The position numbers were made by a program, and so were the translations under genes. A stretch of 57,671 nucleotides of DNA, the filler included, from Jimgerdemannia flammicorona (taxonomy: Eukaryota): the NCBI GenBank assembly GCA_003990765.1. It is 3 parts of 3 records of this genome, joined end to end, with 100 filler letters (N's around TTAATTAATTAA, not from the genome) between each part and the next. Parts side by side here need not be neighbours in the genome. Positions count along the whole stretch, not along the records: positions 19,262 to 38,422 come from RBNJ01002012.1; 2 more parts are not named here. One strand, 5' to 3'. A model generated the notes under the pieces. The model worked only from the letters and a program-made list of their open reading frames with translations, was not told where the DNA came from and did not search any database. Positions 1,449 through 38,599 of the stretch are shown in pieces. Numbering within the stretch: the first letter of the stretch is position 1; every line of letters begins with the position of its first letter.

Positions 1449-1479
1449 AATACTTCTTGAGTTAGTTTTGGTGAATAGT

Positions 1480-3990: not shown

Positions 3991-4099
3991 GTATCTTCTT
4001 GAGTGGAAAATTGTTTCCAATGCTGTAGCTATGCTTATTTATAGTTTCCTCCTTCTTGTAATCCAGTTTGGTGAACTTGGTACTAGTGAATACTCCTCT

Positions 4100-4510: not shown

Positions 4511-4597
4511 TCATCATTACTATCCTCCAGGAGGGCTGGTGGTTCATCATCCTCTTCCTCCTCCTCCTCTTCTCTTGTCTGCTTCTCAAGAGCCTTC

Positions 4598-4635
<38 letters not shown>

Positions 4636-4749
4636 CTTCTTTTTTTTTTTTTTTTTTTATAGTCACTCAGACTTCTATTTATTACTACTCAGTCTATAAA
4701 CAATAATACATATGTATCCACAACCTCTCAGCCATACCCCTTGGATCTC

Positions 4750-8384: not shown

Positions 8385-8415
8385 ATTGAATAATGTTTGA
8401 TATGGAGAGCCCAGT

Positions 8416-10327
8416 CTAGTATTCTATACTCATATTGTCTCCAGCCAGATCTAAGTACCATTCTACCTCTAACTTATCCTCCACTACAGTCTGAGCATCC
8501 ATTGCTACTAAGATTTCCTGGCACTCCACTCTGTCCACAACCTCTATTTCTACCCAATAATCTGTGCACACTACTCTCCACTTCTCCAACCTCTTCCTTG
8601 AGCCCCACAAGTATACCACCTGATTATTTACAATCCTTTAAAGGTCCTCCTCCCTCTGATCATCAACTTGATATTCTACTGACTCCAAGAGAACTGCCAG
8701 AATCTCATTTCTAATCTTTTTTAGCACCTCCTCACCATGAAGGATTTCTTCCCAATACCTATCACTTAGTCTTCTCCCCCCAGCTCCTCAGCTGCCACCC
8801 CCTCCAGAGTCTTCCACAGCCACTTCTTCTCATCTACTGCCTCTGCAACACCCTGGGCCACCCCTTCAACCCCTACCTTAGGGTCCACCAAAGTGCTTTG
8901 CCTCCCCAACTCATCTCACTCCTCTTCTAATATATTTAGTAGTTCCTCCTCCCCACCAACCCCATTTGGGACACCTTACTGAGAGTATACTTCTTCACCC
9001 ATTTCCACATCCTCTACCACTACATTTAGTTCCCTCTCATTTAATCCACTCTGGGCCATATCCTGATCCACCCTGTGCTCTCCAGCCCAGACACTCCTCA
9101 TCAGTCCAGCACTACCTTCTCCTGTACCACTATCTGCTACACACTCTCCCAACTTCTCCAACAGCTCTTTCTGGATTTGTCTCTCTTGCACCTTCTCCCA
9201 GGCCACCTGATCCATCCTGATCCTCTTCCCATCCACAATCTCCACTACTGTCTTGGCTTTATACTCCTTCCAAGTCAATCTTCTCCTCTCTACTGCTCCT
9301 ATCAGATCCTTGAGAGCCTCCAGCAAGTCCTCTTCTTCCTCTGGCATCCCTTTCCCCTGCAAGATCTTACATTTAACCAGTCTCCACTTAAGAGTTGCTG
9401 GTCAGTCTCTTGTCTTCCCTGTATTCTCTCTCTCAGCCAGTCTCACCCTGATGTTGACATCTCCTGTCCAGAGTTCAGTACCCTCCTAGACTCTGAACCC
9501 AATGTCTATAATCTCTCCATACTCCTTTATCACCTCCACAATCAGCTCTCTGGCCCTCTCCCTCGACACTATAAGGAGATCCAACACTGTCAACTACACC
9601 ACTCAGATCTCAGTGTATGCACCTGGCCATAGAACCACTACTCTGCCCATTACTACCCCCTTCTTCACAGCCTTCAATATAAGCACCTCTTCCTCAAATC
9701 CCACCTCAACTCCTTCTTTCCCCTTCAAGAACTTCACTGAAGCCACCCCCTTCACTTCCTGTACCACCAGTTCTAAAATCATCCTTGCAGTTACTGTCAA
9801 GCCCTGGAAGCACAATGTAATGGTGAATTCCAACCTTGACTTTTTGAGTAATGGTGCCAACACCATGCCAGTCATATTATCTGCAAGGTCCCTGGGCCTT
9901 GTGCTCTCCCCCTGTCCTCATCTGCCAATAGCCATCACATCTGGATTTTTTTCCAGATCCCCAGTTACAGCTCTATCAGCAGTCACATCTCCAGCCCCTA
10001 CTCCCCCCCCCCTCCTACTGCCCAACCCTTTTATGGGGACCCCTCTCTGTCCCCCATCTGAGGCTATTGATGCCTTCCCCAATCCCAGCCAACTATCCAG
10101 ACTAGCCACCATCTTCTCCATCCAGACCAACTGCTATCTTCTCCATCTTGACCTTATCAGCAAAGATTGACCTCCTCTCTCCTTGCTGTCTCATTCCACC
10201 CCTCCCTCTACTGCTACTGCCACAGCCCACCATAGGGGGCTTTGGTATCCCCAAACTGTCTCCTTGCCTTCTCTCAACTCAATAGCACTATCATCCCCCT
10301 GACTGATATGCTCATCAGTATACTCAT
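8416..10327 (-). pseudogene. LINE ORF1, disrupted
   Basis: ORF pieces 9603-9875, 8976-9362 and 8416-8619 match ORF1 of the other copies (APLLKKS..EFT..LCF.GL, ASVKFLKG.EGVEVGFEE). Confidence 0.82.
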
Positions 10328-10599
10328 TGCTGTTTATGTTAATAGTCTCCTTTCACCAATAATATTGCAGAAAGTATTGTCTGAGTCTTGTATTACATGA
10401 ATGTTACCAGTGAAAGAATGATGCCTTCTGTCTTCTTTCCTGATAGATCTTTCTGATACTGATGCTACATTGGTAGTAGTCATTGATATGCTCACTATAG
10501 TACATCTTGATTTTATGGAGGCAGACTCCTTATAGTGTATATTCTTTTGCAATCTTCTTGCACCAGTCCTCTTCACTGATCTATTTGACTTTTTTTTTC

Positions 10600-11030
10600 T
10601 TTTTCTGAGTGATCACTATATAGGCTTCTTCTTGCTTAATTTCTTCTTTTTCTATTTCAGATAGCATTTCTTTATTGACATTAATGGGAATTTGCATCTT
10701 CTGGGTATTTAGATCAATTATTGTCTTAGCTTTATAAAGCCACTGGTTACTTATAAGGATATTATAGTTGCTGGTATTAGTCATGATCACATCTACTGGA
10801 ATAGTTGCTTTTTCAAACTTAATGAGAACATCTCAGATCTTTTCCAGAGGTGTGGTTCTTGTGTCATCTGCTGTGATAAATACCAATTTGATTGCTTCTT
10901 CAACTTCCTAACCTAGGTAGTCTACTGCTTTATTACTAAGAAGATATTCTCCTGCTCCTATATTAATGATGGCTTTGAAGATTCTATCTTCAATCTGGCA
11001 GATGGTATAGGCAGAGATCTTGTGATTGTC
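10600..11030 (-). pseudogene. Retropepsin aspartic protease of family A
   Basis: FKAIINIGAGEYLLS is a decayed AIIDTGA motif. ILISNQWL is a decayed ILGNDWL-type motif. Confidence 0.75.
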
Positions 11031-11149
11031 TTCACTCTCTTCTCCTGAGTCTTCTTGAATATTGTTGGCCTTGGTTATCTTCCAACCTTGCTCCTTCATT
11101 GTCTCAGCAAGTCAATATCTCATTTACTATCTGAATGTGGGTATTTCTG

Positions 11150-12420
11150 CTAGCTGGCTGAAGGTTGCCTTGACCTTTTATTAACTGAGATCCTTGAAGA
11201 TATTATACTTAAAGGTCTTGGTTTTGTAAAACTTCTTCTTCTTTTCTCCTTTACTAACTGGAGTGGTTTCTCAGATAATATCTTGAATAGCCTGTTCTAG
11301 CTCTTTATTTTGATCTATTTCTTCATCTTAACTTTCTATAGCAATCTCTATCTGCTTTTCCACAGGATTCTTCTTGAGTCTCCCTAGTGGTCTCTTATAT
11401 AGTTGTTTGTGGACATCTTTCTTGATTGTCTTAGTAGAGTAGACTTCTCATTCCTCTTCATCTGATTTCCCAATCTTCTCAAAGGTGATGATATTGGCCT
11501 GTTTCTTATTTTAAATAATATTGCTTGACTAGGCCTTGTACTTGGTTTCACTCATACATTCATATAAGCAGTGGTCTTTTTCTCTACAAGTATAGTAAGT
11601 ATCTCTCTTCTTGTCTGAGGTGGCAGCAAATTTCTGAATAGGGCACTGGTCTCTTTCTTTAATTTCCTTTACCATCTCCTAGGTGGGCTGTCATTTTGGC
11701 AAACTTCTTAGCAAGTTCCTCCATAGGGTTACTATTCCTCTACTACTTAGTAGCTCTTGGCTGAAGTGTGTTTTGATTGATCACTATAGTAGAGATCACA
11801 CTGATTGCCTTGGATGCTTCAATTCTAACTTCAGTGACACTTTCTATTATATTATCTTGTGGATGTCTAGCTATCTAGTATTACTGAGTATAGGTGACTT
11901 TTTGTAATAGATCCAGAACTATTGATAATAAGTGAATAGCTAAAGGTATCTCTTAGTGAACTCTTTCTATAAAAGTTGCCTCAGCTACTTAATCTCAGTA
12001 GTGGCAGCATAATCTACAAGAATTATCTGATATTGAATTCTGGTGTAGAATGTGTTTGGATCCTTGCTCATTCCTTGGTAAGTTATATTGAGCTGATTCT
12101 TCAGAGCTTGCTTGATCTCATCTATATAGTAAGTGGCTTGGAGCTAGGCCTTCATATACTATTAATACTGTATTGTCATTGTTTCTGACATAGGTTGCAG
12201 CTGTGAATGCTGCTCTTACTGGTCCTTATAGACTAAAGAGCAGGAGGGCTACTTGCTGTATTACTATCAGGGTCCTTATAGTAGCATACTGCTCAAAATC
12301 ATCAATAAAGATAATGATTGATTCATCTGAAGTATATCTATAGAATACTGGTGGTCTCATATCCATCTTATCTGGATGTCTTGGTTCAATTTATATGGTT
12401 GTTCAAGTGGTAGCAGTTGT
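11150..12420 (-). pseudogene. gag with CCHC zinc knuckle, family A
   Basis: MRPPVFY...IFIDDFEQYA near the 5' end. Decayed knuckle TYYTCREKDHCLYEC at ~11555-11603. Boundaries approximate. Confidence 0.7.
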
Positions 12421-12480
12421 TTATTGTTTAGCTTGAAAGTGAGGAGTTTATCTTCAATTACTAGCCAATGAGTATTAAGT

Positions 12481-12952
12481 TGTAACATAGTAGATACCTA
12501 ATCTCGGAAATATGGCAGATTTCTATATCTTGAAAACTTGACTTGTTCTGACTCTTGCAGAGTCCTCAAAGTACAGAGGAGTGAGTTTGAAGTATATCTG
12601 CCTGCAGGCTTACTAGTTCCTTTGCTTTCTCTTTGCTTTGAACTATTTTGATCTGAGGTTATTCACTCTAGATACTGGGATATTTATACAAGTTTTCTAG
12701 CTATAAGGTGGCTTAGTTATGACTATGTTTTCTGTGAGTCATTTTCTACAAGTATAGATCTTCTATATCTATAAAATCTCTATAATTGTAAAGATTCTAC
12801 ATCTTTAAAATTTCTACATCTGTAGAATTTCTATATTTGTGAAATATGACTGCTATTTATAAGACTATACTATATTTGGGAATTGGATTCAGATACTATA
12901 ATCAAATGTCTATTCCTCTGATTTATGTTATTAATTCAGATCAATTATCACA
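12481..12952 (-). repeat. 5' LTR of gypsy family A
   Basis: Direct repeat of 492-945 with one extra ~17-bp internal repeat unit. Confidence 0.95.
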
Positions 12953-12986
12953 ATATATAAAACACAAGTCTGATATGTATAATAAC

Positions 12987-13385
12987 TAGTATTTTCAAAA
13001 AATTAAATCAATTTGATTTAAATTAAATTAAGAGTCATTTAAATCAAATTGAATTGGGAATTTTTTAATTTGAATCAAGTTTAATTGAATCAAATTTGAA
13101 TCAAATTAAGGGTCTAATTTAAATCATATTTTTTGAAATATAATAACTTAACAAAAATATGTCCAAATTTTATGATCTTTAGCTTTTTAGATTTCCCTTA
13201 TATAGAGAAATCTAACAAGCTAAAGATCATTAAATTTGGACATATTTTGGTCAAATTATTATATTTTAAAAAATAGAGTTCAAATTAAATTACAAATTGA
13301 ATTAGGTCTTTGATTCAATTTGAATTAAATTGAATTGGACCTTTGATTGATTGAATTGAATCAAATTTGGATTTTGGGAGCACTA
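12987..13385. mobile_element. hAT-type non-autonomous element (MITE) with internal palindrome
   Basis: TIRs tagtattttcaaaa / ttttgggagcacta. 8-bp TSD ataataac (12979-12986) / ataataat (13386-13393). Palindrome with ~70-bp arms centred near 13200, plus ttgaa-type subterminal motifs. Confidence 0.8.
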
Positions 13386-13525
13386 ATAATAATTAACTCT
13401 ATTATGATAAGCTAGTAGAAAAATGTATCAAGTTATTATTCAAACAGCTTTCTCCACTACAATTCATGTTACACACACTTTACAACACACTTTCAAGTTG
13501 TTTATTGGAGAAAGCTATTAAGGAA

Positions 13526-15559
13526 ATGTCAACCAGTAAGCAAGCTGACATGCATACCAGGTCTGGCGGACCTGGGGCCTTCAACTGGCAGCATGTTGGG
13601 AGAGGGTATGGGCTGGGGATGAGGTCTTTCAGTGGCTCAGGTGGGCAGGACAGCTTGGGGAGTAGAAGTGGCACTGGTGGGGGGGCTGGAAGGCAGCAGG
13701 GAAGGAGCTTTGCAGACACACTGAGGACTGGGGGTTGGCCAGCAGGATCCCGTAGTGGTCAGGCAGGAGGGAAGGAGAAGCAGAAGAATGGTGCTGCTGT
13801 GGGAGCTGGGCCTTCACCAGGGAGAGGTGGTGGAGGTGGAGCTGCTGCTGGGGGTAGTGGCGGGACTGCTGATGGTGGCATGATGGTGAATCAGGAAAAA
13901 AAAGGAGATGTGACGGCTGATAGCCAGGGGGGGCAGGGGTTCCCGATGCGGAAGGGGGACCTGGCAGATGGTGTAACAGGGCTGGTGGTGGCCCCATTGC
14001 TCAAGAAGTCGATTTCGGAGTTCACAGTCAGCTTGTGCTTCTGGGGCTTGGCAGTGATGGCGAGGATGGTTCTGGGGCTGATTTCGAAGCAGGTGGTGGG
14101 GGCAGCCTCGGTGAAGTTCTTGAAGGGCTTGAAGGGGGTGGAGGTGGGCTTTGAGGAAGCAGGCCCACTGGATGAGGTCCTGAAGACTGGAGTCATAGTT
14201 GGTGAGGTAGTGGTCCCCATGGTGTGGTGCTTGAGGTGGGACCCCAGGGTAGTGTAGCTTCTAGTGAGGGGGGTGCCCACGGTGACTAAGGAGGAGACTA
14301 GGAAGAGGGTGGAGGAGGTGATGGTCGAGCATGGTGATGTGGTGGACATAGGCTTTCAGGTGTGGGAGGGGACCACACTCAGGACAGATGATGTTGATAT
14401 CAGAATTCGGCTGGCAGGCAAGGAGGTCACAGGGAAGACAAGTGACTGGCCTTCAGTACTGATGTGGGGAGCTGTTGTGTGCAAGGTATCGAGGGTGAAA
14501 GGGAGTGAAGAGGAGGAGGAGGACTTGTTAGAGGCACTAGAGAAGTTGGGTGGTGCTGTAGAGAGGAGGGCGAAGGCCTGGAAACTGTATGAGGAGTCGA
14601 CACATCTGGAGGTTGTGGGCAGGAAGTGTATTCATATGGACAGGAAGCAGTGGGAGTGGGTCCAGAGATGCCAGAGGCAGAGGGAGCTGTTGGCCAGTAT
14701 GACCAGAGGGGTGAAGAAGAAGTCAGTTGGAGCTGGGGAGTCTGGAGGTGTAAAGACCAGTGTCTGGGTGGGTAAAGGAGGAGAGGAGGGGGAGGCAAGG
14801 GTGGCAGAGGCTGGGAAGATGCTGGACAAGGACCCATTTGCTAATGGAACCTTCAAAGTATGGGAGCCAGAGTTGGATGCCACCCCCCCCCCACTTATCA
14901 GACAGGGCCCGGTGGGGAAGAGAGGGACGATAGAGGATACATGGATGCAGGGGGCCCAGCAGGTGCACTTTGGGGTCCCTGATGTAGTACAAGGGGGTCA
15001 GGTAGTGGCAGTTAGTGAGGAGGAGCTGGTGGATGTCCCTGAGGAGGAGTGGGATGAGGTTGCCAGTATAGGAGCAAATACTATGATGTTGGATACAGGG
15101 TAGCTGGGGACTCCAGGAGGGAAAGAGGTGGGAAACTTGTTGTGGATGCACAAGGTGATGGATAATCTTGCAGCAGAGGCTTTGGGGGAAGTGGACCTGT
15201 GGGCGATGCCTGAGGAGCATTGGGCACAAATTCTGCATGGTGATGGAATGTTGGAGGCACTGAAGGTGGAAATTCTGGCAATTTTCCTGGAGGAGGAGGG
15301 ATATGAGGTTGATGAGGTGAGGAAGACAGAGTTGGGGGTGGTTGCTGGTGAGTGGGTGACATACTGTTGGACAGAGTGTCATGGTCTGAGGCTCTGGCAG
15401 GAGGCCTGTCTGGAGTATCGGGAGGACTTTGAGGAGCATGAAGATGGGGCAATGGTAGAACTTCTTGGAGAGTTTGCAGCATGGGAAGCTGGGGAGAGGG
15501 AACTAGCTGCTGAACATAACTTGGACTTAGTACAGGAGGAGCGGAATGTGGACTTGTAG
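13526..15559 (+). pseudogene. LINE ORF1 (~677 codons: Gly-rich N-terminus, RRM-like core, acidic C-terminus) with two premature TAG
   Basis: ORFs 13466-14257, 14264-15103 and 15128-15559 are in one frame. The first stop is CAG in the 33 kb copy. LVRGVP...VEEVMVEHGDVVDI is RRM-like. Confidence 0.85.
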
Positions 15560-15590
15560 AGGATTGGACCACAATATTTCAGTATTCTTA

Positions 15591-18500
15591 ATGAACAGTT
15601 TCTCCTTGAATGTGAATGGGTTAAGAGGCTTTGGGTGGTGTAAGAACATTTTTACTTGGCTCAAGAGATTGGAGGCTGATCTCTTTTTACTATAGGATGT
15701 TCGGTGTGAGGATGAGGATGAGCAGGTAGAGTGGACTAGAGAATGGGGCGGGGCTGCTGCTTGGTTTGGAAAGGTAGCGATTCTGGTGAGGAGGGGCAGA
15801 GGAGACTTGGGGGGTATCAGGAGCTGGGGTGATCGCTTGGTCTAGGGAGATTGGCATCGACCAGAGTGGGAATTGGTGAGGGTGGGCTCTTGCTACTGCC
15901 CTGCCGTTAGGGGTGAGAGGACTGCGTGGATTAGAGGGCTGCTGGAGGAGGGTATTCTCTTGGAGGAAGGGGTTGATGTTCTTGGTGGAGACTTCAATAT
16001 GGTTTGGGATCAGCGTCTGGACAGAACTGATGGAGGGAGGAGTGCCAGGGGTAGAAGTGGAGGTCTGGATACATGGGAGGAGGTGGAGATATTGAGTTCC
16101 TTAGGGGATATGGGCAGAACAAGGTGGGGGATGACAGGGTCTACACACATTGGGTGAATGGCTTGGGCACAAGGATTGACTGGATTCTGATGGCAGAGTG
16201 CTGGGGTTCGGATGTTTGGAAGACATTGGGAGTGGAGTGGTGCCCATGGTCTGATCACTGGGGACTGTTGGGGCAGGGGCAGTTTGGGGGGAGTGGAGAT
16301 GGACCTGGACATTGGCACCTTAACTCCTCTCTGCTGGCTGAGAAGGGGTTGTGGGAATTGTGGGTGGAGGACATTCAAGCAAAAGTTTTGATTTGGCAGT
16401 ATGAAGGTCTGCCTGTGGCTGTCTGCTGGATGAGATTGAAAGAGGCTGCAAGGGTTTATTGGGGAGGGGCTGGCAGTGAGGCTGGGAGGCAGAGGAGGAG
16501 GCACATGAGGTGTGCTACCAGCAGGCTGAGGAGACTACAAATGGAGTGGGTGGATTTGCTCACTATTGTTGGGGTGGAGGATTGGAGGATAGAGAGGGCG
16601 AAATTGGAGATAGTGGAACTACAACAGGTGTTGAGGGATGAGGAGGAGACTCATATGCAGGGGATGGCTGCCAGGCTACGGTGGCAGGGGCTTGAGGAGG
16701 GGGAGTGGCCTACTAGGTACCTTTCAAGACTTCTCAAAGCTAGGAGGGTGCAGCATCAGTGGGATGGGGTCCTGGATGATGGTGGGGACATGGTACATGG
16801 TACACAACAAATCTTAGGGGTTCTGAAGGAGAGGTGGCAGGGTTTGTGGAGTGAGGGAGAAGGGGGTGCTGATGAGGCAGAGATTGCAGATACACTAGAA
16901 GAGTGGGAGCCGCCACAGGTAGCTGGTCTAGGAGACTTGATCTTACCGGTGCAGGGAGAGGAGATTCAGAGTATCCTGGCTGCGACTAAACTTGGGACAG
17001 TGCCTGGGGAGGATGGATTGCTGTGGGACTTCTGGAAGAAGATGGTAAATGTCCCTGGAGTTTTGGGTGAGATGGCTGCTCTGTGTGACCATGTCCTTCA
17101 GAGCAGTGAGTGGGTTGGAGAGCAGGATCTCGGACTGGTGGCCTTATTGTACAAAGACAAGAGGAGGAGGGAAGACTGGAAGAACTGGAGGCTGATCATG
17201 CTTCTGGATATGGACAGGAAGATGGTGACTAAGGTGATTGTTGCAAGGCTGCAGAAAGTTGCCCAACAGGTGCTGGGAGTGGAGCAGCAGGGCTTTGTTG
17301 GGGGCAGACTTATTAGAGATGGGACTGCATGGGTTCATGGTGTCATTGAAGGGGCCTGGGCCTGTGGACTAGATGGAAGGTTGGTCTTTTTGGATCAGGA
17401 GAAGGCCTATGACCATATACAGTGGGTGTGGCTGGGCAAGGTTTTGGACCGAATTGGTGTGCCCACAAGATTTAGGGCCTCTATGTTGAGTCTGCTGGAG
17501 AGTAGTCGGGCAGCTCTGATGTGTAATGGTCACCATGGGAGGGCATTTTCCTTGGGAAGAGGAGTACCTCAGGGGGACCCTCTATCCCCGATTCTCTATG
17601 CCCTTTCACTGGAGCCATTGATGGATAGAATTCACCAGAAGGTAGCAGGGCTCTCTATATATGGTATAGTGTAGAAGGTGGGGGCCTTTGCTGATGATAT
17701 GGTGGTTGGACTTGGGTCTGTGGCGGATGTAGAGATACTTCAGGAGACTGTGGAATGGTATGAGGCTCACTCAGGGGTAAAACTCAACTGGCATAAGTGT
17801 GAGACAATGGTGCTAGGGAATGGGCTAGTGGGTGGGAACATCATTGGAACAATTGTCCCTACTGGTGAGGTGGTGCAGTATCTGGGCATCTTCCTCTCTG
17901 TATATGGTTCTGTCTTGCCACAAGTGTGGTGGGAGAGCAGGGTGAATAGTTGGGGGGAGGCCCTTCAAGGATGGAGAGGCTGCCATATCTCTCTAGCAGG
18001 GCAGGTGTCAATCCTGAATATATATTGGTTCCCAAAGCTGTGGTATATGGCATATCACCTCGACTTCCCAGTGTGGGTGGTGAAGAAGCTGACAAAGGTG
18101 GCTAGGGATTGGATTTGGGCAGGGAGGAGGTCCCAGATCAGTTGGGATACTCTTGCGAGACTGGTAGTCAGGGGAGATCTTGGCCTGGTGGATTTCCCTA
18201 AGAGGCTGCACTGCTTGAGAGCCTGGTGGTTGAAGAGAGCTGTGGAATTGCAGGGCAGAGGTTGGGTGCCTCTGCTGCAGAAGGTATGGGAGATGTGGAC
18301 ATCTCCTCAAGGGTCCTCCGGGGATCTGCTCTCTTTGGTAGGGCTGAATGGAGTTTGGAGGCTGCGGTTCAAGGGTTTTTGGTGGGGAGTGGCCGATGGA
18401 GCACATCAAGTTGGCCTGCGCTAGCAAGGTAATGAGGGGGAGGCAGCATGGGGGCCTAATATATGGTATTGAGATAGACTACTCCTGGGGGGTACTCCCC

Positions 18501-19161
18501 TGGCTGCATTCGATATTGGGGAGGGAGTGGAGTGTCAGCAGGGGCTTGGCCAGGACCTTTGGCTGAGTGGCTGTCAGGCAGTTAGAATCGGAGAGGAGTG
18601 GGACTAGGCAGGCATCTGGTCTTGGAGTGCTAAGGTACAGAGGTGGCTTCCTCCCAAGTACTGGGTAGTATGGTGGAGAATGTTTTGGAGGAATGTCATG
18701 CTGAATTTCTGCTCAGGGCATTTAGAGGAGGGTGGACAATTTGACTGCGAGGAGTGTTATAATGTTGGGCAAGCTGGGGGTTATGTACAGACACCAGAAC
18801 ATTGGCTGAGAGAGTGTGAGGTTTTGGGGGACTTTTGGGCTGAGATAGGGGATAGACTGGGTGTGGGGCATTGGCTGGTAGGGGAGGGGGGTCGCGGGGA
18901 GGACTTAAGATCTCAGCTTGTGGGTGGGGTGGGGGATAGTTGGCTCACTGTAGGATGGATATTAGCAGTATGGATGGAACTGGCGAGACATTGGCTCTTT
19001 GTATTTGAGGAGGGGCAGCAGTTGGGACTGCATGAGAAGGTGTTAAGGTAAGAGGAGCTGGTGGGGGATCTGCTGACCAGATGGTGGGTGGGTTGGGGTC
19101 CTCAGGGGGGATGATGTTGTGGTTTGGTGTTGAAGATCTGTGAGCAGAGTGGTGGGAGGGT
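15591..19161 (+). pseudogene. LINE ORF2: APE endonuclease, RT, CCHC-like finger; frameshifts and stops
   Basis: APE motifs SLNVNGLR, GGDFN, RIDWIL, SDH. RT motifs QQGFVGGR, FLDQEKAYD, GVPQGDPLSP, FADD. Finger CEEC...EHWLREC. A 10-bp deletion follows the ATG relative to the 34.8 kb copy. Confidence 0.93.
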
Positions 19162-19261
19162 NNNNNNNNNNNNNNNNNNNNNNNNNNNNNNNNNNNNNNN
19201 NNNNNTTAATTAATTAANNNNNNNNNNNNNNNNNNNNNNNNNNNNNNNNNNNNNNNNNNNN
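19162..19261. other. Assembly gap / artificial linker
   Basis: 100 nt of N containing TTAATTAATTAA, which gives stops in all six frames. Confidence 0.97.
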
Positions 19262-19271
19262 GGTATTTATA
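19262..19271 (-). promoter_or_regulatory. Probable main LTR TATA box (gtataaatacc)
   Basis: Conserved in all three LTR copies. In the complete copies an aataaa follows ~20 nt downstream. Confidence 0.5.
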
Positions 19272-19346
19272 CAAAATATAATTCAATGGTTGCTAAGATA
19301 TAAAGCTAAATATAAATTCCAATAACTAAAACTACTGAGTTCCAGG

Positions 19347-19471
19347 GCTGGCATTATTTAGTACCACATCAAAATACCGGTGCTGGAACAATTTCGCATC
19401 ACCTCAGAATACTGGTGCTGGCATTATCCAGTATTACATGAGAATACCGGTGCTGGCATTATCCAGTATAA
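19347..19471. repeat. ~35-bp tandem repeats in LTR U3
   Basis: About 3.5 units of gctggcattatccagtattacatgagaataccggt between the ORF stop and the TATA box. Confidence 0.75.
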
Positions 19472-19481
19472 CAAAGAACTT

Positions 19482-20318
19482 TTAGAGCAGAAAGTTCAGG
19501 ATCATGGGAGCTTTATCATCATCATCATCACTGAAGGAGATGAGATCCACGAATTCGTCATGTAGGTCACGCGTCTCGTGTACTTCATCATTTTCGTGTG
19601 CCTCGATGTTGTGCGGGATGACATCATCGATGATGTCATCACGTTCGGGTGTGGCAGGAAAATCAGGAACAAGGTCTGGAGCTCTCCAGTCTATGAGGTT
19701 CTCCTCCACAAAATAGGAGACAAATGTGGGGTCTTGGGGGGATCTAACCCAGATGCTTGGGCCTTGGAATCCTGAGATCAATCCTTGCAGGAATTGGTCT
19801 GGGTTGTCCTGAAGGATAGGGTGCCAGAAGTCTTCTACTTCTTCACTGTTGAGGGTGATGGTGGACTGGGCTTCTGTAGCTACCCTGGCTTCTAGTGCAT
19901 TGATGCGGCGGGATGATAGGTCTCTGAAGTCTGAGACTCTAACATACTCCAAGTTGGGGATCGACCATGGTATATGCCTGAAGATCTGATGGATCTTCTT
20001 TGCTGTCCTTGCCTCACGTAGGTCTATGGGGGTGGCATCTTGTAGCTCTTGAGGGCTGGCCTGTGGGAACTCCCGGCAGAGGAGGTTTCCTATTTCGTAT
20101 TCCGGCCATATTTGGAGGCATTCGGTGGCAATGGTGATCCTTGTTTCCATTTCACAGCGGTAGAGGATAAAGTGATAAGGGTCTGCAGTACCCAGGTTGA
20201 TGCTAGGAGTCCTTCTTGAGCGGGTCCTCATGGCTCTTCTGATGTCTTGAAACATCCTTTCCTCGACCGAGATACCTTGATGATTCCTTGACCTTGAGGT
20301 TTGGTGGGCAGCAGGCAT
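19482..20318 (-). CDS. Intact 278-aa protein of unknown function encoded inside the family B LTR
   Basis: Uninterrupted ATG-to-TAA frame. The same frame is recognisable in two decayed LTR copies. Basic N-terminus, helical core, acidic tail. Confidence 0.8.
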   Translation of the reverse strand: MPAAHQTSRSRNHQGISVEERMFQDIRRAMRTRSRRTPSINLGTADPYHFILYRCEMETRITIATECLQIWPEYEIGNLLCREFPQASPQELQDATPIDLREARTAKKIHQIFRHIPWSIPNLEYVRVSDFRDLSSRRINALEARVATEAQSTITLNSEEVEDFWHPILQDNPDQFLQGLISGFQGPSIWVRSPQDPTFVSYFVEENLIDWRAPDLVPDFPATPERDDIIDDVIPHNIEAHENDEVHETRDLHDEFVDLISFSDDDDDKAPMILNFLL

Positions 20319-20396
20319 TTTGTTTGTGGTAAGTCTTTGAGCTATTTTGGGATTGGGGTTCTTGTTGGCTGCTGCTACTGCGGTTCCTTGATCCTT

Positions 20397-20404
20397 CTTT
20401 TATA
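20397..20404 (-). promoter_or_regulatory. Candidate internal TATA box (TATAAAAG) for the LTR ORF
   Basis: About 80 nt upstream of ATG 20318 and conserved in the other two LTR copies. Confidence 0.35.
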
Positions 20405-20619
20405 TTCTTTAAGATGCTTGTGCTGTGGTCACAATGACTCACAGTTGGTCATCGTTGCTCATCTTACATGCCATATAATCTTCTTGTACTCTGATCTGGT
20501 GGCTTGTAAAGAAAGGCTGTCTCCTGTGCTGATGTCATCATTCTGGGGTCACCGTTATATTATATTTCCACTCAAACTATACTTAGAATGAACTCTAACA
20601 ATATTAATTTTTCTTTATA

Positions 20620-22750
20620 TGATAATTAGCAAAATAGGTATATTACTTATTGATATATAGTACAATATTACAAGACTAGTAGATGATGTTGCTTTGTGGT
20701 GGGTTCTGCATATTAATTTCAATACAATCTATTTCCCCAGATAATGATACAAGATACAAACTTTGCATTTTTCTTGATATTTTGAGAAATGCTTGCTTGA
20801 GATAAGTCTGATAGGATCTAGGTTATGAGATTTAGTAATGCAATGCTTTCTTGGTGGTGGATCTGGTATCATTGACTCTTCTTTTATATGATTATATATT
20901 TTTCTTTATATTTCATTTTCTATTTCTTTTTCATTTGTAAGCTTTATAAGATCTTAAGCTAAATTAAGCTGAAATATAATATTAGTTATCATCAATCCAG
21001 TCATAGCTATCTGATACACTAAGTATAAATTGATGATTGTCATATCTAACAACCAAAAGAAAATTAGCACCCAAGTCTGTTTAGCTCTAATCTGTGTATT
21101 GTAATATCCATAAAATTGGTCAGCAATGTTAACTCCTCCTATATAATAGTTATAATTATCAATAACTTTTGGAATTGCTAGATCTTTTCATATATTCTTT
21201 CTCCAGATTTCTCAAACTTATATAGTATTATTAACTGTGGGTCTTAGATAGTACCAGTTATATATGATCTTCTATTCATCTCTAATAAGTTTATGAATTG
21301 TTATTAACATGGTGACCATACTATTATCTATTTATAGCAATGTCAGAACATCATTAACAATTACTTCCAAGATTATATTCTAATCATACATTGCTTTTTT
21401 TGCCAATCTTAAGTTAATCTGGGAATTGTTTCAACCTCTGTCTAACTGTTCTACATACTTCAATTCTCTTTAATCATAGATATTTGAATAATATAATACT
21501 GAAGAAGTAATTGTCCATATAGATATCAAATGCTTATATATCGAATAGCAACTATTTGACTAAGTGAATGACAGAAGAGACTGTTTGACTAAGTCTACTA
21601 ACTCTCTCAACCTCTCTATTATTAGTAATATGCAAAGTCAGGAGAAAGATCTATATATAACCATAATTATATAGTGTCAAAATTTTGAAGCCTTTAGGGA
21701 TTGGTTTAAGTTTCAATCAGTACATATGTATGCTTTTGCCTAAGAATCATATCATTATCTCATCAATGAATAGATTGGAACTTGAAAGATAGATAAATTA
21801 GAAAGTTGTTCAGATATGGGAAAGTAATGGTTCAAGCTTTGCATAATAGTTACCATTGTGAACACCATGTAGGGAAATGTGAAAGAATTGCTTGATTTGT
21901 TGGAACCAATAACAGGACATATATTCAAGTATTTTATGTATTGGTTTTCAAATATTATTATTTCAAATTCACTCTAGATCTCTACCTATATGGAAAATAC
22001 TAAAGTATATATAAATAGCAATGAAGATGATGAGCTCTGGTACTATCAGATCTTCCCACATTCTGCTAGTCTCTCCAGCACCCTTACTGTAGTATAGTAA
22101 TTTATATTAATAATGATGATCTTCAGCATTGTGTCAGGAAAGAAGAGATGAAAAACATTGATAATAGATAAGTTTTCACCAAGATGATCAGGAAGAGCAG
22201 AGAATCTTGAGAGAATACAGTTCATGTATTCAAGATGCAAAGGTAGAAGTGATAGGTAAGATATAGATTTTGCCCTACTTATTATTGTCAACTTTAGTAA
22301 TTGATGCTGTCAACACTATTGATGATTTATTTTTGCTCCCCTTTGGTCTTCCTCTCATTTGATGAGTTTGTTGACATTATATATCATCTGTTTTTTGCTG
22401 AAGGACTTATCAATGGATTCATCAACAGATTCATCTTTGGATTCTTTATCAGAGTCAAACTGCTCACTATTAGTTTTATTATTAATATATATCATTACTA
22501 TTGATGATTTGTTTTTGGCTCTCTTTGGTTTTCCTTTCTTTTATTTGATACTTTTGTTGACATTTTATATCCTCTGTTTTTCCTTTCCTCCAATAGATTT
22601 ATCAATAGATTCAATATAGTTATCATCATCAAGATTATCAGTGAAGTTATCAAGGTTATTAGCAAAGTCATCAAGATTATTAGTGAAGTTATTACTATTG
22701 CAGAGGATTCAAAAATGAAATTTCACTATAGCTTCAGCTTCTTGCTCTTG
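20620..22750 (-). pseudogene. Decayed piggyBac-family (DDE_Tnp_1_7-like) transposase
   Basis: Reads LFIDEIMI*FLG, KPIPKGFKIL, YMDNYF, IPKVIDNYNYYIGGVNIADQ (decayed YN..MGGVD..DQ). Decayed Cys-rich C-terminus near 20620-20680. Element termini not resolved. Confidence 0.85.
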
Positions 22751-22780
22751 AAATATATGAGAATAGTGAAGATTATATAA

Positions 22781-22860
22781 GGTAGGTGAGTGGGTGTTCT
22801 TATGGGTAGGTGGGTGTTCTTATGGGTGAGTAGGTGTTCTTGTAGATGGGTGGATGTTTT
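22781..22860. repeat. 20-bp tandem repeat (~4 units)
   Basis: Units resembling tatgggtaggtgggtgttct. Confidence 0.7.
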
Positions 22861-23079
22861 CTTTTATTAGTCCCTATATCCTTGTTCTCTTTATTTGATA
22901 ATTATATCAATGCATGACTTGTTTTCCCTTTATTACCTTTATTAAGGAGACAGAGAACAATATAGCCAGCAATGAGGCTAGTATTATACTAGATGATTGG
23001 TGCTTAGTGTATCCATCAATACTGCAACTTGAGCACCTTCAATATCTGCCCTTTAATATCTGCAACTTTGGAGTACAGT

Positions 23080-24420
23080 GGCAGATTCATTTCGGCCTCA
23101 ATAGGTTCTATCTTGATATATTACATTGGATATTTCTCAGATAATGACTACTCTTATTAATAGTGATTGTTCATGATATTTTAATATTTGCACAGGTTAA
23201 TTTTCAGTCTTAATAGATCCTATGTCAATACTTTATATAGAGAATTCATTAGCAAAGATATTGCAAAAGACCCAACATTTTTCAGATAATGACTACTGGC
23301 AAATTTGATGATATAGACAATTCATGTAATATTAGAGAGTCTGAACTAATGAAATTTGGCAATCACAGAGTTACAGGGGCATGCAGTATTAAAGGTAGGC
23401 TCTTTTTGCTTCCTCAAATATATCCAAAAAACCTGCAACAAGACTCATTCAAAGCTACTGCCTTTCTCCAATATATATGACTCTGATCTACTGTTTTACC
23501 ATATACTAACTTAAGTAGTATTGAAGACAAAAACACACTCCTCCCATATCTACCCCCCACCACCTTCAAGAGGTAGTTATGGTAGTTAGGACCAGTCATC
23601 CTCTGGTAAGGCTCTAAGCTTTATGAGATCCTCTGATATTTGATTTCTTCAGTAATTTTCTGATCTATATATATACACTACATATATATACTCAAATGGG
23701 GCAGCCTTTATTGCTAAGGCTTTAAGTTTATGAAAAATGCATTCTCAATATACCTCCATGTCTTTTTCTCACCTTTTTGTTTATTTTTACTCAATCAGAC
23801 CTCTGTCAACCTTACTTTAAAGCTAATGAGAGTCCTCTTTTTTTATCCTGAGCTTTAAAGATATATAGCTAAAGGATAGGTAGATAGGTGGTATACTGCA
23901 TTCTATACTATATTGTTATTCTTCACTATATTATTCTTTGGTAAGTTCATTTTTGGCCTCAATAGGTTCTGGTATAATACTTTATATAGAAAATTCATTA
24001 ACAAGAATATCATCAGAGATCTGATATTACTCAGGCAATAATTACTCTTTGTGGTCCCTCATTATCTTGTAATTCTATATGTAGAGTTCTGTGATTATTC
24101 ATATTTGGTAGGTTTATTTTTAGTCTCAACAGATTACAGCATGATGCTTTACATAGAGAATTCATTTGTAAAGATATTGCAAAAGATTTGATATTTCTCA
24201 GGTAATAACTACTCTTATTAATAGTTATCTTTCACATTAGTAGAGATATCTGCAACTCTAATACTCTTTAACATCCATCTATATATATATTGATAATTCA
24301 GCAGATTCATTTTCTTTAATATTCAGTCTTAACAGCTTCCTTTTCAATGCTTTATATATAGAATTCATTAATAACAGTATCATAAAAGAACTAATATTTT
24401 TTAGAGAACAACTACTAGAG
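23080..24420 (-). repeat. Dispersed ~110-bp repeat (~5 copies), probably a decayed repeat-protein gene
   Basis: Units near 23085, 23200, 23945, 24115 and 24305 share atagagaattcatt. The minus frame reads like LLPEKYQI..DIF.NEFS.*SI..EPIEAKNE. Confidence 0.55.
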
Positions 24421-25094
24421 TAGTATAGATAGATAGCTAGACTATAGCTAGTACAGCCAGTAGATGTAAATATTTTGCAAGCATATTTGCCTATATTTAT
24501 ATATATGGTCCCATACTTATATAAGTATTATAAAGTGTAGACTGTATTGTTTCACTTTGAACTTTTGGTATATTTGCCTATTTGAGGTTATAGTATATAT
24601 ACTTATCTTATAGATGGGTATATATAGTATAGAGTGAGATATTTTATATTATATATTTTTATAGGCAAATTTACCTGCACTATGGAATAAGAGATATATA
24701 TTTGAAAACTTTATATCTATATTTATATAAAGATAGTAAATTCAAGTCTTTTTATTATTATATTATTAGATATATAGAAAGTTTTGATTTTTATTAAATA
24801 AAATTATTTAATTTTTATTAAAGTTTTTATAAGATATATATTTTATATTATTTTATATTATTTAATCTAACTAATTATACTTTTTTAATAATATCTCTTT
24901 ATATACTCAAAATTTCTTAGAGTTATATCTCTAAAGTATAGTATAGCTAGCTTATTATTCTTAAATAACTTATAGATATACTTAGTAATTATTTATAAAA
25001 AATCTGATACATAAGTAATAATTTAGTCTTTTTATATATATATATAGTTACTAATAGATGAGTTATCTCAACTTAAAGTAGTGCTCTGCAAATC

Positions 25095-25460
25095 CAACCC
25101 AATTAACCTAAAACCCAACCTATAAAACAGCTAACCTGGAATTAGACATTACTCATCTTTAACCCAACTTGGAATTATATATCACCTATCTTTAACCTGA
25201 CCTGGAATTATACATCACCCATCTTTAACCTAATCCTGAATTGTACATCACCCATCTTTAACCTGATCTGAAAAGATATATTACCCATCTTTAACCTAAC
25301 CTGAAATTAAATATAACCTATCTTTAACTCAATCTGGAAATATACATCATCTGACTTGTTATTTACCCTTAACCTAAACCTAAATCTGACCCCTGAACCT
25401 GACCCTGAACCTGACTCCTGAACCTAACTCTGAACCTGACCCTCTGAACTCTGCCCTGAA
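25095..25460. repeat. hAT subterminal tandem arrays (~33-bp and 12-bp units)
   Basis: About six acccatctttaacctgacctggaattatacatc-like units, then about six cctgaacctgac units. Confidence 0.85.
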
Positions 25461-25529
25461 AAAATGATTTGGATAATATTTAGAGTAATTAGAAGTGAAA
25501 AATATCTGAAGACTACTAAGAATCCGAAT

Positions 25530-27865
25530 ATATACATGCATAAATTGTAGTTATACACAAGCTGTTTTAATGTTCAGTCACCTGCTTACCAGCAATAGAA
25601 AAAATATATTCAAATAGAACAGATGTTGCTGAAATAGTAAGATAATCATGAGCTATTTGTAAAAGATTAGGATATACTGACTGATTTCACTACCACCAAT
25701 CCAGTATATCTATATGAGTATTAGCTAAATTCTCTAATAAATAACTGAAATAGAGAAATATGAGTAAAAATTAACCAAGCCAATCAAAAAATATAAAAAC
25801 AATACCCACTATTCAAACTCATCATCTACATTGATGTGCTGTTTCTTCTCATATATTAAGTTGATAAAATCATTAGTATCACAGGATATTGAGGGTATAA
25901 TAACAGCATTAACAGGCTTATACTCCTTTTCCCAGATACATTCCATCTGCTTCTTCCATTCATCAATTAAGGATTTTTTCTATTGCTCATAATGGAAATA
26001 ATGCATATTGATATATGGATCTAAGGCTGAAGCTATGCTGTATAATGGTGTTATCTTGCAGTAATACTTTAGAAGTTTCATATATATATTCTCAGCAGCA
26101 GTAAGTATTATTTATAAAAAATAAAAAATAAATGGAAATATATATATATTACTTCCCAATTACTTACTAAATTAGTTCCTAAATTTACAAATAAAATTAC
26201 TTTCAAAATCATATATATACCTGATTAAAATATTTACCAGTTTGATATATATTGATAACATCTTTGAGGTAATCACATAGCTGATTAAATAGTAGGATAA
26301 TAGCTGCTACATATTATAAGATACTTTGAAGCTAACATCATAGTTATCACTTTGGCAAAAGGCTTGAGAAATTGGCAAATAAATTCAAATTGTTGCCATA
26401 CATCTTCAGATATATCACTCATTTGCTTATCTATGACACACAATATATCTAAGCCCTATTTGGATGTAATATCAATTTATTTAGTATCAAAATACTTCTA
26501 AATCATATTCCAAAATCTATACAAATAGATTCAAAATCTTACCTTATAAATCTCCAGAGTATGTACTAACATTTCATATATAGAACTCTATCTTGTCATA
26601 ACATCTAAGAGAGGCTTCAAAATGGGAATTCTGGAGGATTTACAGATCTTTACCAGTTGTGCTTGTTATTGTACTGAATTTTTGATCTTCTTTATCAACT
26701 CCCATAGCTTTTCAATAAGCTCACTAAGAGAACCAAGAGCATCATGAATGATGAGATTCAATACATATCTGAAACAGCATATATGAGTAAGTGGATGATG
26801 GAGATTCTCAAACAGAGTATCATTGTTACTGGTATTGTTATATATAACAGCAATAATTTGATTGTCACTAGGCAATAAATTATCTATTATCAGCTCTAGA
26901 ATTTTTGCAAGATTAGTACTCATGTATATTATTTCACTGATATTTACAAAGTCTAAGATAATGTCATGTATCTTCTAATCACTGTCAAACCAATAGGCTG
27001 TTATTTTAAGAAAAGCCTTAATGTTAATGTCCAATGTTCAACAATCAAGTATAAGTAATACTTTCAACTTGAGCTCTGCTAGTCTTGCTTTCACTTGAGT
27101 CTACAATAGTTCAAATTTCTTTTGAATAACTTGTGAAATTGTATTAGCTGATGGAAGGGCCAGATCAGGGCATAATATATGAAGGAGATACTTGAAGCCA
27201 GTGTTTTCGATAGTAGAGAATGGTAGATATCCAGTGATAATAAAGTTGGCAATTAACTGATGGAAATTTTTATTACTTAAAGTCTTGCTAGTGTATTCCT
27301 ATTTATAATGATAAAATTTGATGAATTATTTTTCTAATAATCTCCTAAGTACTTCCTGAATTTCATTCTATCCATACTTATAATATCATCTTTCTTAGAC
27401 CAGTGAGGATTCTCAGCATGCTAGAGAGGTAAGAGTATAGCATTGTGATACTTCTAGAGATGTCATTTAAGATTGTTGATATTACCATTCTTCAATATAT
27501 AGCTCTAAGTTATGCAATGATTGCAACTGATGAGCTTACTTTATAAATTCTATTTGAATAGAGAGATATAAGACTATATTAGAATCTCAACTACTTATAA
27601 CCAATCACTCTTATGACTGACCACCCTTACAACTGATGAGACCAACTACCTCTATGAATGCAATCATTAGTATAATGTATAAAACTATCTTTATAGTATG
27701 ATTCTACACTCAGATATTATCAGGTTTTGTTTTTATTTTTATTCTCATGCTCATTGGTGATAATGAACTGGTGGAGATATCCAATATATCCTTCAATATA
27801 TTCTCTGATATATCATCTGATGGTTCTGAGATTTCTCTTAAATGTACTTCTTGATCTTTAGACAT
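25530..27865 (-). pseudogene. hAT transposase with BED finger and C-terminal dimerisation domain, probably intron-containing
   Basis: Reads CNHC...NLK*HL*KYH, LDC*T...AFLKITAYW, CFRYVLNLII, LDVMTR*SSIYEML, LDWW...YPNLLQIAHDYLTISATSV..E.IFS.AG. Confidence 0.88.
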
Positions 27866-28234
27866 TTTGAAAAGTATTTGATAACAGTGGGGACTGGAAG
27901 CTTGAGTGGGAGGCTGAGAGCTAGAAAGTGGCTAGGAAGTAGTGAGCTAGGGAGTAGCAAACTGGGAAATGAGTTAGAGAGGCAGTGAACTAGGGGGCAG
28001 AGAGTTGGGGGGAGGCAGTGAGTGGTGGAGAAAGCCAGGAACTGTGGGGCCTAAAATAGGAGTCAGCAAGCTGAGGGGTAGTAAGATAGAGAGTAGCATA
28101 AGGTATGATAGCCAATAATTGATTGTGGACAGAGGATGGATGAATAAATATGCATAGGTAGTAAACTGATACCCATCATACAACTGCAAACAGCAAATAT
28201 ACTTTAGAGTTCAGTATATTCTGCATAAGCCCTG

Positions 28235-28450
28235 ATTGAGCAAGGTTTGTAATAATGTTTGAGCAAGGTTTGTGGTATATTTGAGCAAGATTTGCAGCAA
28301 GATTTGAGCAAGATTTGCAAGCAAGATTAAAGTGAGATTTGCAAGCAAGATTAAAGCAAGATTTGCATATAAGATTAAAGTGAGATTTGTATAAGCCAGG
28401 CTTTGCAAGCCTTGCACTTGTAAGCCTTGTACTTGTAAGCTTGGACAAGC
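28235..28450. repeat. gcaagattt-type short-unit tandem array
   Basis: Repeated gagcaagatttgca / gcaagattaaa / cttgtaagc units. Probably the subterminal region of a DNA element cut by the LTR. Confidence 0.7.
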
Positions 28451-28477
28451 TCAGTCACAAGCTGATATAATGTGTAT

Positions 28478-30032
28478 TATTATATAGTAGTCACTGAGTC
28501 CTTCAAATATACCAGATTCTCTTCAAGATGTATCTCTTAGACTAACTCAAGTTTGTTATAAGCAAGTTCTTATTGGAGTGCCTTCCCAAAGTCTTATAGT
28601 CCTCAAACTTCTTATCTTTTAACTGTCTTATTATCTCTTAGATTTCTTGCAAGGAAGTGTGTGTATTGCACTGAGAAGACTAACTTTATTTCAGAGAAAA
28701 TAAGAGGGGTATTTATACAAAATATAATTCAATAGTTGCTAAGATATAAAGCTAAATATAAATTCCAATAACTAAAATAAAATGCCAGGACAGGAAAAAC
28801 TACTAAGTTCCAGAGTTGGCACTAATGGTTGTACAGGTTCAGGATGCTGGTATAATTCAGTGTCATATCAAAATACCAGTGCTGGTATTATTCAGTGTTA
28901 CATTAAAATGCTGGTACTGGTATTATTCAGTATAACCAAGAGACTTAGAGCAAAATATTCAAGACCATAGGGGCTTTATCATCAGAGGTCAGGATATCTT
29001 TGAAGGAGATGAGGTCTGCAAATGTCTCATCTATCTCATCATTGTCATTACATAGATCACATATTTCACATACTTTGCATGTTTCATTGTACATCTCATG
29101 TATGTCATGTGGGATGATGTCATTGCTGATGATATCATCACATTCAGCAATAGAGAAATCGGGAGCTCTCCAATCTATGAGGTTCTCTTCTACAAAATAA
29201 AAGACAAATGTGGGGTCTTGGGGGGGCCTAACCTGGATGCTTGGGCCTTGGAATACTGAGATCAATCCTTGCAGGAATTGGTCTGGGTTGTCCTGAAGGA
29301 TGAGATGCCAGAAGTCTTCTACTTCATCACTATTGAGAATAATAGTGGACTGGGCTTCTGTAGCCACTCTGGCTTCTAGTATATTGATATAGTGGGATGA
29401 TAGGTCTCTGAAATCTGAGACTCTAACATACTCCAAGTTGGGGATTGACTATGGTGCATGTCTAAAGATCTGATAGATCTTCTTAGCTATCCTTATTTTA
29501 TGTATATTCATGTTGTAGCTCTTGAGTGCTGGTCTGTGGAACTCCTGATAGAGGAGGTTTCCTATTTTGTATTCCTATCACATTTGGAGATATTCAGTAG
29601 CAATAGTGATCCTAGTTTCCATTTCACAGTAATAGAGAATATAGTGATAAGAGTTACCAGCACCCAGGTTGACACTAGGAGTCCTTCTTGAGCAGGTCCT
29701 TATGGCTCTTCTGATGTCTTGGAATATCCTCTCTTTGACTGAGATGCCTTGATGATTTCTTGATCTTGAGGTTTGGTGAGTGGCAGGCATTTCATTTGTA
29801 GTGAGTCTTTGAGCAATTTTGAGATTAGTGGGTCTTATTGGTTGCTATTACTGTGATTTCTTGATCCTTCTTTTATATTTCTCAAGATGCTTGTACTGTG
29901 GTCACAATAACTTATAGTTGGTCATCATTGCTCATCTCATATGCCATATGATCTTCTTGTGCTCTGATCTGATGACTTGCAAGGAAAGACTGTCTCTTGT
30001 GCTAATGTTATTATTCTGGGGTCACTGTTATA
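28478..30032 (-). repeat. 3' LTR of family B (~1555 bp)
   Basis: Colinear with 49487-51086 and 19262-20559. The end tattatatagtag is a decayed tgtcacatagtag. Confidence 0.88.
28945..29790 (-). pseudogene. Decayed copy of the LTR-encoded ORF
   Basis: ORFs 29578-29790 and 28945-29436 match the 278-aa protein. Confidence 0.9.
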
Positions 30033-30344
30033 TCTTCTTCTTGAATAAGGATCTTCTTGAGCATCCTTATTCATTGATCTAGTCCTGAAAAATTTGCTGA
30101 TCCCATAACCTCTGGCAAGGGATCAAAAAGTGGTATTTATGGGCTAGCATCTTCCCTTTATATTTTGGCATGATGGTGAAGGGTCACTCCCTTCATATAG
30201 AGCAAGGGTCTGATTCTGATCTTGACCAATCAGTTGATGGTTCAAACTCCTTGAGCTTCAAAAGTCTTATAGATGAGTAGTTGCTAGTATCATATCCCTT
30301 AGAGAATGGTTCAGACAGATAGCCTGCTGGTCATGGGACATGAT

Positions 30345-32645: not shown

Positions 32646-32725
32646 ATCTCTCTCTACTACAATTCACATTATACACACTTTACAACACACTTTCAAATCA
32701 TTTATTGGAGAAAGATATTAAGGAG

Positions 32726-34758: not shown

Positions 34759-34791
34759 AGGATGGGACCCTGATATATATCATTATTCTTT

Positions 34792-38522: not shown

Positions 38523-38599
38523 TTATTTTTTTTTTTGTTTTTTGTTTTCTTTTTTATTATTTTATTACTATTTAATTTTTTTTTTTTTTATATTAAATA

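Follow-up and report, generated by a model that had tools for sequence, protein, structure and literature searches.

Whether a retrotransposon's long terminal repeat (LTR) can carry a complete protein gene is the question raised by an intact open reading frame (ORF) that lies inside a repeat present in three copies. Retrotransposon LTRs count as regulatory, non-coding DNA, which annotation pipelines mask, and, to our knowledge, LTRs are normally regarded as non-coding outside vertebrate retroviruses. The ORF was found in a stretch of 57,671 bases, hereafter the window, which consists of three pieces of 19161, 19161, and 19149 bases joined by 100-base linkers and is made up of AT-rich DNA crowded throughout with decayed transposable elements. 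Because the piece junctions are located there, features touching positions 19262 or 38522 are artificially cut. The coordinates of the features discussed below are collected in Table 1. From the evidence of the sequence, the repeat of 1.56–1.60 kb is likely a Ty3/gypsy LTR that carries a complete 278-codon gene for an accessory protein.

Table 1. Positions of the ORF, the repeat copies regarded as putative LTRs, and neighboring features in the window
Feature	Position	Strand	Remark
Intact ORF	19482-20318	-	278 aa, ATG to stop; inside LTR copy 1
TATAAAAG motif	20397-20404	-	~80 nt upstream of the ATG; present in 3/3 copies
35-nt tandem repeats	19347-19473	-	3.6 copies, lying after the ORF stop and before the TATA box
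TATAAATA box of the putative LTR	19264-19271	-	aligns with the TATA/AATAAA block of the relative
Putative LTR copy 1	20559 -> 19262	-	by self-BLAST; 3' part (~230 nt, R/U5) removed by the junction
Putative LTR copy 2 (3' LTR)	28478-30032	-	follows integrase; decayed ORF
Purine tract AAGAAGAAGA	30033-30042	-	directly 5' of LTR copy 2
Putative LTR copy 3 (3' LTR)	49487-51086	+	heavily decayed ORF
Purine tract AGGAGGAAAA	49477-49486	+	directly 5' of LTR copy 3
pol (RT, RNase H, integrase) of the element owning copy 2	30083-32653	-	by Pfam
Integrase end of the element owning copy 3	47144-49486	+	83% identity, 47144-48040 vs 31172-30276
Comparator 3' LTR, related gypsy element	492-945	-	454 nt, without the ORF
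Comparator 5' LTR, related gypsy element	12952 -> 12481	-	412/475 aligned columns identical to the 3' LTR
piggyBac-like transposase remnant (DDE_Tnp_1_7)	~21407-22064	-	between LTR copies 1 and 2
hAT dimerisation-domain remnant	~25500-25740	-	between LTR copies 1 and 2
Linkers	19162-19261 and 38423-38522		44 N, TTAATTAATTAA, 44 N

Boundaries of the repeat and the elements that own it

Self-BLAST delimits the three copies at 19262-20560, 28475-30033 (same orientation), and 49485-51089 (inverted). Copy 1 (19262-20560) aligns with 28708-30033 at 78% over 1351 columns in the same orientation, 19665-20561 aligns with 50399-49485 at 71% in inverted orientation, and 28475-28776 plus 29109-30288 match 51089-50743 plus 50445-49226. 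All three copies open with TATAAC(A/G)GTGACC, at 20559, 30032, and 49487. An earlier note on this DNA had described three copies of ~1.55–1.6 kb with the same start, and that description stands except at the end of copy 1, which at 19262 is simply the end of a piece. The note had also placed two copies directly behind integrase and a purine tract, an arrangement that Pfam domains and the tracts themselves bear out for copies 2 and 3. Upstream of copy 2, on the minus strand of 30034-32700, RVT_1 and RT_RNaseH/RT_RNaseH_2 precede Integrase_H2C2 and rve (the latter two at about 31437-30936), which is the domain order of Ty3/gypsy elements (Metaviridae).

Both pol regions are interrupted by insertions. 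The upstream part of the pol of the copy 2 element is cut at ~32645 by a LINE-like insertion. This is one of three copies of a G-rich non-LTR (LINE-like) retrotransposon, at 13445-19161, 32645-38373, and, inverted, ~4946-10010, which stand out from the AT-rich background by an extreme strand skew (GC skew +0.4 to +0.5; G+C 0.52-0.56); two of them share 88% identity along 5.7 kb, RVT_1 is found in an intact 533-aa ORF at 16073-17674, and the copies split two elements in the window, namely, the pol of the ORF-bearing element and a related gypsy element. The integrase end in front of copy 3 is interrupted at 48040-49218 by a retrocopy of a processed gene for a PrmC/HemK-like methyltransferase, with PrmC_N and MTS matches on the minus strand in a broken frame, a 68-base T run, which on the minus strand is a poly(A) tail, and on either side the 18-base duplicated flank TATAGCACTAGCAACTAC.

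Copy 1 opens with the same TATAACGGTGACC as the others, while a purine tract is missing from its 5' flank. Upstream of copy 1, the six read-through frames of 20561-28474 gave no gypsy domain; the matches there were to DDE_Tnp_1_7, from a piggyBac-like remnant, and to a hAT dimerisation domain. The 5' edge of copy 1 thus adjoins non-element DNA, so that copy 1 would be a 5' LTR or a solo LTR; the only other LTRs of the ORF-bearing family seen in the window would be copies 2 and 3, both of them 3' LTRs. Metagenome contigs (Logan) from four runs, three of soil metagenomes and one labelled organism A, searched at 80% likeness, cover 19262-20560 in all four, and the cover falls to ~0 from 20582. 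Among the loose contig ends listed at 20552-20560, most read the reverse complement of the purine tract/integrase end. Pieces of the repeat occur in soil, root, and rhizosphere metagenome runs, with a best share of sampled words of 0.24; none of the listed sequencing runs containing such pieces is an RNA run.

These boundaries bear on the possibility that the ORF is a third ORF of the internal region, followed by a much shorter 3' LTR that starts near the 35-nt repeats, with copy 1 being a fragment broken by chance at the purine tract. Extra ORFs between pol and the 3' LTR are a common arrangement according to the portions of PMC7264820 and PMC5408684 that were available, and a 5' LTR followed by gag is not seen for the ORF-bearing family in the window. 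Copy 1, however, has as its first base exactly the one that directly succeeds the purine tract in the other two copies, with the piggyBac-like remnant as its flank, and only ~50 nt separate the pol frame stop from the start of the repeat in copy 2. It is also established that a purine tract at such a position, upstream of the ORF, would prime plus-strand synthesis, which would make everything downstream of it U3. We therefore regard an internal third ORF as very unlikely. Observations that count against the reading of the repeat as an LTR include its termini, which begin with TATAAC in all three copies where TG...CA termini are expected, the last bases being ATAATA for copy 2 and GTGACA for copy 3, and the lack in the window of an element of the ORF-bearing family with both LTRs and a target-site duplication. 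A sensitive blastn search of 38523-47143 found no second LTR for copy 3; that region is occupied by a different gypsy element encoding gag, dUTPase, PR, RT, RNase H, and IN.

A relative with two LTRs provides the comparison. Its pol DNA is 68% identical to that of the ORF-bearing element, its LTRs enclose a gag-side protease, dUTPase, RT, RNase H, and integrase, and its termini read TGTGAT...GTTACA. The LTR of this relative aligns with both ends of the 1.6-kb repeat. The likeness at the 3' end (...CTACTATGT[G/T]ACA, last ~50 nt) is convincing, with a score that was reached by 1–17 of 500 shuffles, whereas that at the 5' end is weak, its score being reached by 2–87 of 500 shuffles against the 3' LTR of the relative and by 279–308 of 500 against the 5' LTR. 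The sole TATAAATA/AATAAA block of the relative aligns with the block downstream of the ORF. Taken together, the alignment of the ends and of the putative promoter block indicates that the repeat holds an extra ~1.1 kb, bounded by a short 5' segment and by the block, both of them shared with the relative. As a separate observation, dUTPase domains are present in two different gypsy elements of the window, at 4042-4488 (-) and ~40225-40597 (+), after the protease in one and before it in the other; the portion of PMC5408684 that was available states that, by 2017, dUTPase in LTR retrotransposons had been reported only from basidiomycetes and bdelloid rotifers.

The ORF and its protein family

The ATG is situated 243 nt inside the repeat, in the context ACAAAATGCC, and the stop codon also lies within the repeat, 5' of its TATA box. 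The stop-to-stop frame spans 19485-20399, and an in-frame stop 27 codons upstream of the ATG means that the ORF is not a continuation of pol. The ORF had been announced as a sense-strand ORF of 278 aa; it exists and reads in the direction of pol, as judged from copies 2 and 3, but on the window it occupies the minus strand. When the protein was compared with the window by tblastn, it matched only its three repeat copies, each in a single frame, with amino acid identities to copy 1 of 67% for copy 2 and 53% for copy 3. The ORF of copy 2 (28948-29790) has three in-frame stops in 281 codons. In that of copy 3 (49746-50579), 15 of 278 codons are stops and the ATG is gone. Frameshifts are absent from both. 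An ordinary gag/pol fragment, the outcome that the earlier note had set against its own reading, is not what these searches returned, since tblastn found only the three copies and no Pfam family matched the ORF.

The ORF is, as had been claimed, intact in the copy that retains CpG and recognizable in the other two, which stay in frame with stops. CpG counts in copies 1, 2, and 3 are 29, 1, and 0, and their G+C contents are 0.46, 0.37, and 0.30. Of the 229 differences that separate copy 1 from copy 2, 187 are transitions, as are 279 of the 372 that separate it from copy 3; most of these transitions are C>T and G>A. The C>T/G>A decay is graded and hints at more than CpG methylation, namely a RIP-like or deamination process. 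TpA rises from 68 to 134 and 213 through the three copies while CpG falls, and the C>T changes are commonest before A and not limited to CpG.

Relatives of the protein were found outside the window. A word-indexed search (371 candidates) gave five homologues at E<=1e-3 with 58–88% identity, and a profile search of 1.84 billion representatives gave five, including intact distant proteins of 200–342 aa with 29–45% identity; these homologues are gene calls on metagenome contigs of 900–4848 nt, so that intact ones are favored by ascertainment. With cluster members included, the family comprises 11 sequences with 29–91% identity to the window protein. Three distant full-length forms and the window ORF share an MP..R start, and the distant forms have in common the blocks EYEI, AKK.HQ.F.H.P, WNP.LQDN.DQ.LQ, and F.G..I, together with an acidic tail ending LNF. 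None of 1049 longer candidates scored as a fused form, a result that carries little weight, and a scan of viral_contigs yielded no relatives among 97 pattern matches. In the protein Atlas, the matches are unnamed clusters with a best score of 0.86; one cluster, with a score of 0.83, is mostly from Mucoromycota and can be taken as a lead only. A metagenome locus with a 33% match was rejected as a chance match because the match contains the search pattern itself. That locus (1-13026) belongs to an unrelated crAss-like phage with a crAss muzzle protein C-terminal domain, ART-PolyVal, and DUF192, and in-frame stops are numerous in its long frames, a pattern seen in phages that have reassigned a stop codon.

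Variation within the family was evaluated with the best-supported 40 of 254 contig variants, 32 of which fall in the ORF. These 32 are distributed over codon positions 1, 2, and 3 as 6, 5, and 21, and comprise 19 synonymous and 13 non-synonymous changes. Within this best-supported 40 of 254, the third-position excess has P = 1.9e-4 against equal use of positions and P = 8e-4 against a null weighted by the G+C at each codon position, and the synonymous excess has P = 1.8e-3 against the 33% share of transitions in the ORF that are synonymous. The differences between copies 1 and 2 are likewise distributed as 45, 32, and 81 over the codon positions (P = 7e-4, G+C-weighted null). Among the non-synonymous changes in the same best 40 of 254, two lie in codon 116 and jointly give the alanine of the family consensus, and a variant at 19750 would create a stop if alone but may be half of a two-base W-to-Q change. 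The window copy departs from the majority at several residues, for example, at codons 72, 116, 183, and 190, and may itself be drifting.

A functionless frame, open by chance or decaying, in a long non-coding LTR would agree with the lack of a known domain or fold, with the breakage of two of the three copies in the window, and with the private amino acid changes of the third. Such a frame would hardly account for the third-position and synonymous excess, nor for intact homologues that keep the start, core, and C-terminal motif at 29–45% identity. In addition, ~3% of transitions in the ORF would create a stop, which makes its long neutral survival unlikely. A chance frame is therefore extremely improbable, and the data support the view that the ORF belongs to a real gene family under purifying selection.

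The protein has a mass of 32 kDa and a pI of 4.7. Its head (residues 1–45) is basic and Arg-rich with a pI of 12, and its tail (216–278) is acidic with a pI of 4.05 and ends LNFLL. A membrane-like segment is absent, with a maximum Kyte-Doolittle(19) value of 0.51 and values below 1.6 in 10 of the 11 homologues, a profile that does not fit an env-like ORF3. A profile search of PDB sequences gave no matches at E<=1, and an ATG5_HBR match in two of nine family members (Pfam, E 0.088) was taken as noise. AlphaFold2 models were poor, with pLDDT of 33.2 from six sequences and 49.9 from 11, and the low-confidence model predicts a mostly helical fold up to residue 183 with short strands at 200–212. 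The structural check proposed earlier, AlphaFold with Foldseek, was run with this low-confidence model as the query, and no matches were found in the PDB or BFVD at E<=0.001. Likeness to Sag, Nef, or Bet was seen neither by Pfam and PDB sequence searches nor by Foldseek with that model.

Placement of the ORF within the LTR and its possible expression

In the sense of the element, the order of features is the purine tract, the TATAAC start, a 243-nt leader with TATAAAAG, the ORF, the 35-nt repeats, TATAAATA, and AATAAA. The earlier placement of the ORF upstream of 35-bp repeats and of TATA and poly(A) signals was correct: the tandem repeats are present in copies 1 and 2 (2.5 copies at 28845-28931 in the latter), followed by TATAAATA and AATAAA. 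The distance from TATAAATA to AATAAA is ~25–30 nt in copies 2 and 3, and the remaining 3' part of the LTR after AATAAA is ~230 nt, ending ...CTACTATGTGACA. The coding sequence thus falls between the purine tract and TATAAATA/AATAAA, the position expected of a U3 gene. The spacing of the two motifs suggests that AATAAA is a poly(A) signal at the U3/R border and TATAAATA the promoter of the element. The ORF is therefore probably in U3, an assignment made from motifs alone in AT-rich DNA where TATA-like words are common.

The ORF might instead be located within the LTR but in R, if transcription started from TATAAAAG and the ORF formed the first cistron of the genomic RNA; use of the poly(A) signal of the LTR would then yield a short LTR-only mRNA. 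The presence of TATAAAAG at the same short distance upstream of the ATG in every copy and the context of the ATG accord with this placement, and the accessible part of PMC3485330 proposes a 2-kb R region for rice Retrosat2. On the other hand, the block 3' of the ORF aligns with the only TATAAATA/AATAAA block in the LTR of the ORF-less relative, which points to that block as the promoter of the family. The conservation of TATAAAAG is weak evidence because the motif, consisting of A and T only, escapes C>T decay whatever its function. Placement in R hence appears unlikely. TATAAAAG is a candidate promoter of the ORF itself.

With the ORF in U3, its fate would follow from the replication of the element. 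In the reverse transcription of LTR elements, both ends receive a copy of the sequence from the purine tract to the poly(A) site. Since the ORF lies between the two, the gene would be duplicated at every insertion and retained in solo LTRs. Every genomic transcript would carry it at the 3' end, a position from which translation would require a shorter mRNA; this mRNA might be spliced from the transcript of the 5' LTR or started at TATAAAAG, and would end at the poly(A) signal of the LTR itself. It is conceivable, although we lean against it, that each LTR is a self-contained gene with its own TATA, the 278-codon ORF, and its own poly(A) signal. If so, each insertion would bring two copies of the gene, solo LTRs would keep making a trans-acting protein, and the product would be an LTR-borne "public good" that serves the whole family or is co-opted by the host. 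As to its role, the Arg-rich basic head, the predicted helical core, and the acidic hydrophobic tail might belong to a soluble nuclear regulator or adaptor that aids expression of the element or counters its silencing, a weakly supported suggestion that we offer as the likeliest role, although a rather doubtful one.

Comparison with known accessory genes

Accessory ORFs of other LTR retrotransposons are positioned differently. The parts of PMC7264820 and PMC5408684 that were available describe the additional ORFs and ORF3s of plants and bdelloid rotifers as family-specific orphans present in most copies, with unknown or regulatory function and often 3' of pol. Those of plants lie between pol and the 3' LTR or near or upstream of gag, and the phrases "in the LTR" and "within the LTR" do not occur in the available text of the plant review (PMC7264820), while the bdelloid ORF3s appear in the available part of PMC5408684 as separate units 3' of pol. 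The ORF described here, in contrast, follows the purine tract and lies inside the repeat, not in the internal region. Rice Retrosat2, as far as the accessible part of PMC3485330 goes, has LTRs of >3.2 kb and an orphan ORF0 in the internal region upstream of gag-pol, and LTRs are said there not to code for replication enzymes; the present element resembles it in the unusually long LTR and the orphan extra ORF but differs in that its ORF is in the LTR. The available portion of a paper on Rhizophagus transposable elements (PMC8647823) makes no mention of an LTR-borne gene of this kind. A full-text literature search for an ORF in or within an LTR, with subscription journals outside its coverage, returned only items on MMTV, among them the review PMC9412291 with a phrase match for an LTR containing an ORF, on foamy-virus miRNA, and on unrelated subjects. 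Within that same coverage, an LTR-borne gene in a retrotransposon is not described outside vertebrate retroviruses. These comparisons support the view that the novelty lies in a U3-type accessory gene carried by a Ty3/gypsy retrotransposon, whose product defines an orphan protein family, itself new and linked to an element of high copy number that occurs in soil and root metagenomes.

A gene under selection in an LTR would double its dosage at each insertion and would outlast the formation of solo LTRs, which is the commonest route of element loss. The gene would be the retrotransposon counterpart to sag, nef, and bet, and could show how accessory genes of U3 arise.

The nearest parallels are retroviral. 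MMTV carries the superantigen gene sag in the U3 of its LTR, the product being a type II membrane glycoprotein. The present case is similar in that a whole protein gene lies 3' of the purine tract and inside the LTR and would, in consequence, recur in each LTR and at the RNA's 3' end. The searches above gave no relation between the two in sequence or fold, however; the protein here is soluble and acidic and lacks a membrane segment, and it is carried not by a vertebrate retrovirus but by a Ty3/gypsy retrotransposon that has no env. The nef gene of HIV/SIV and bel2/bet of foamy viruses are 3'-terminal accessory genes that overlap U3 and are expressed from spliced or internally promoted mRNAs. 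They share with the present ORF the use of U3 sequence as coding sequence, but, without any homology to it, they begin upstream of the LTR and only overlap it, whereas the ATG and the stop of this ORF are both inside.
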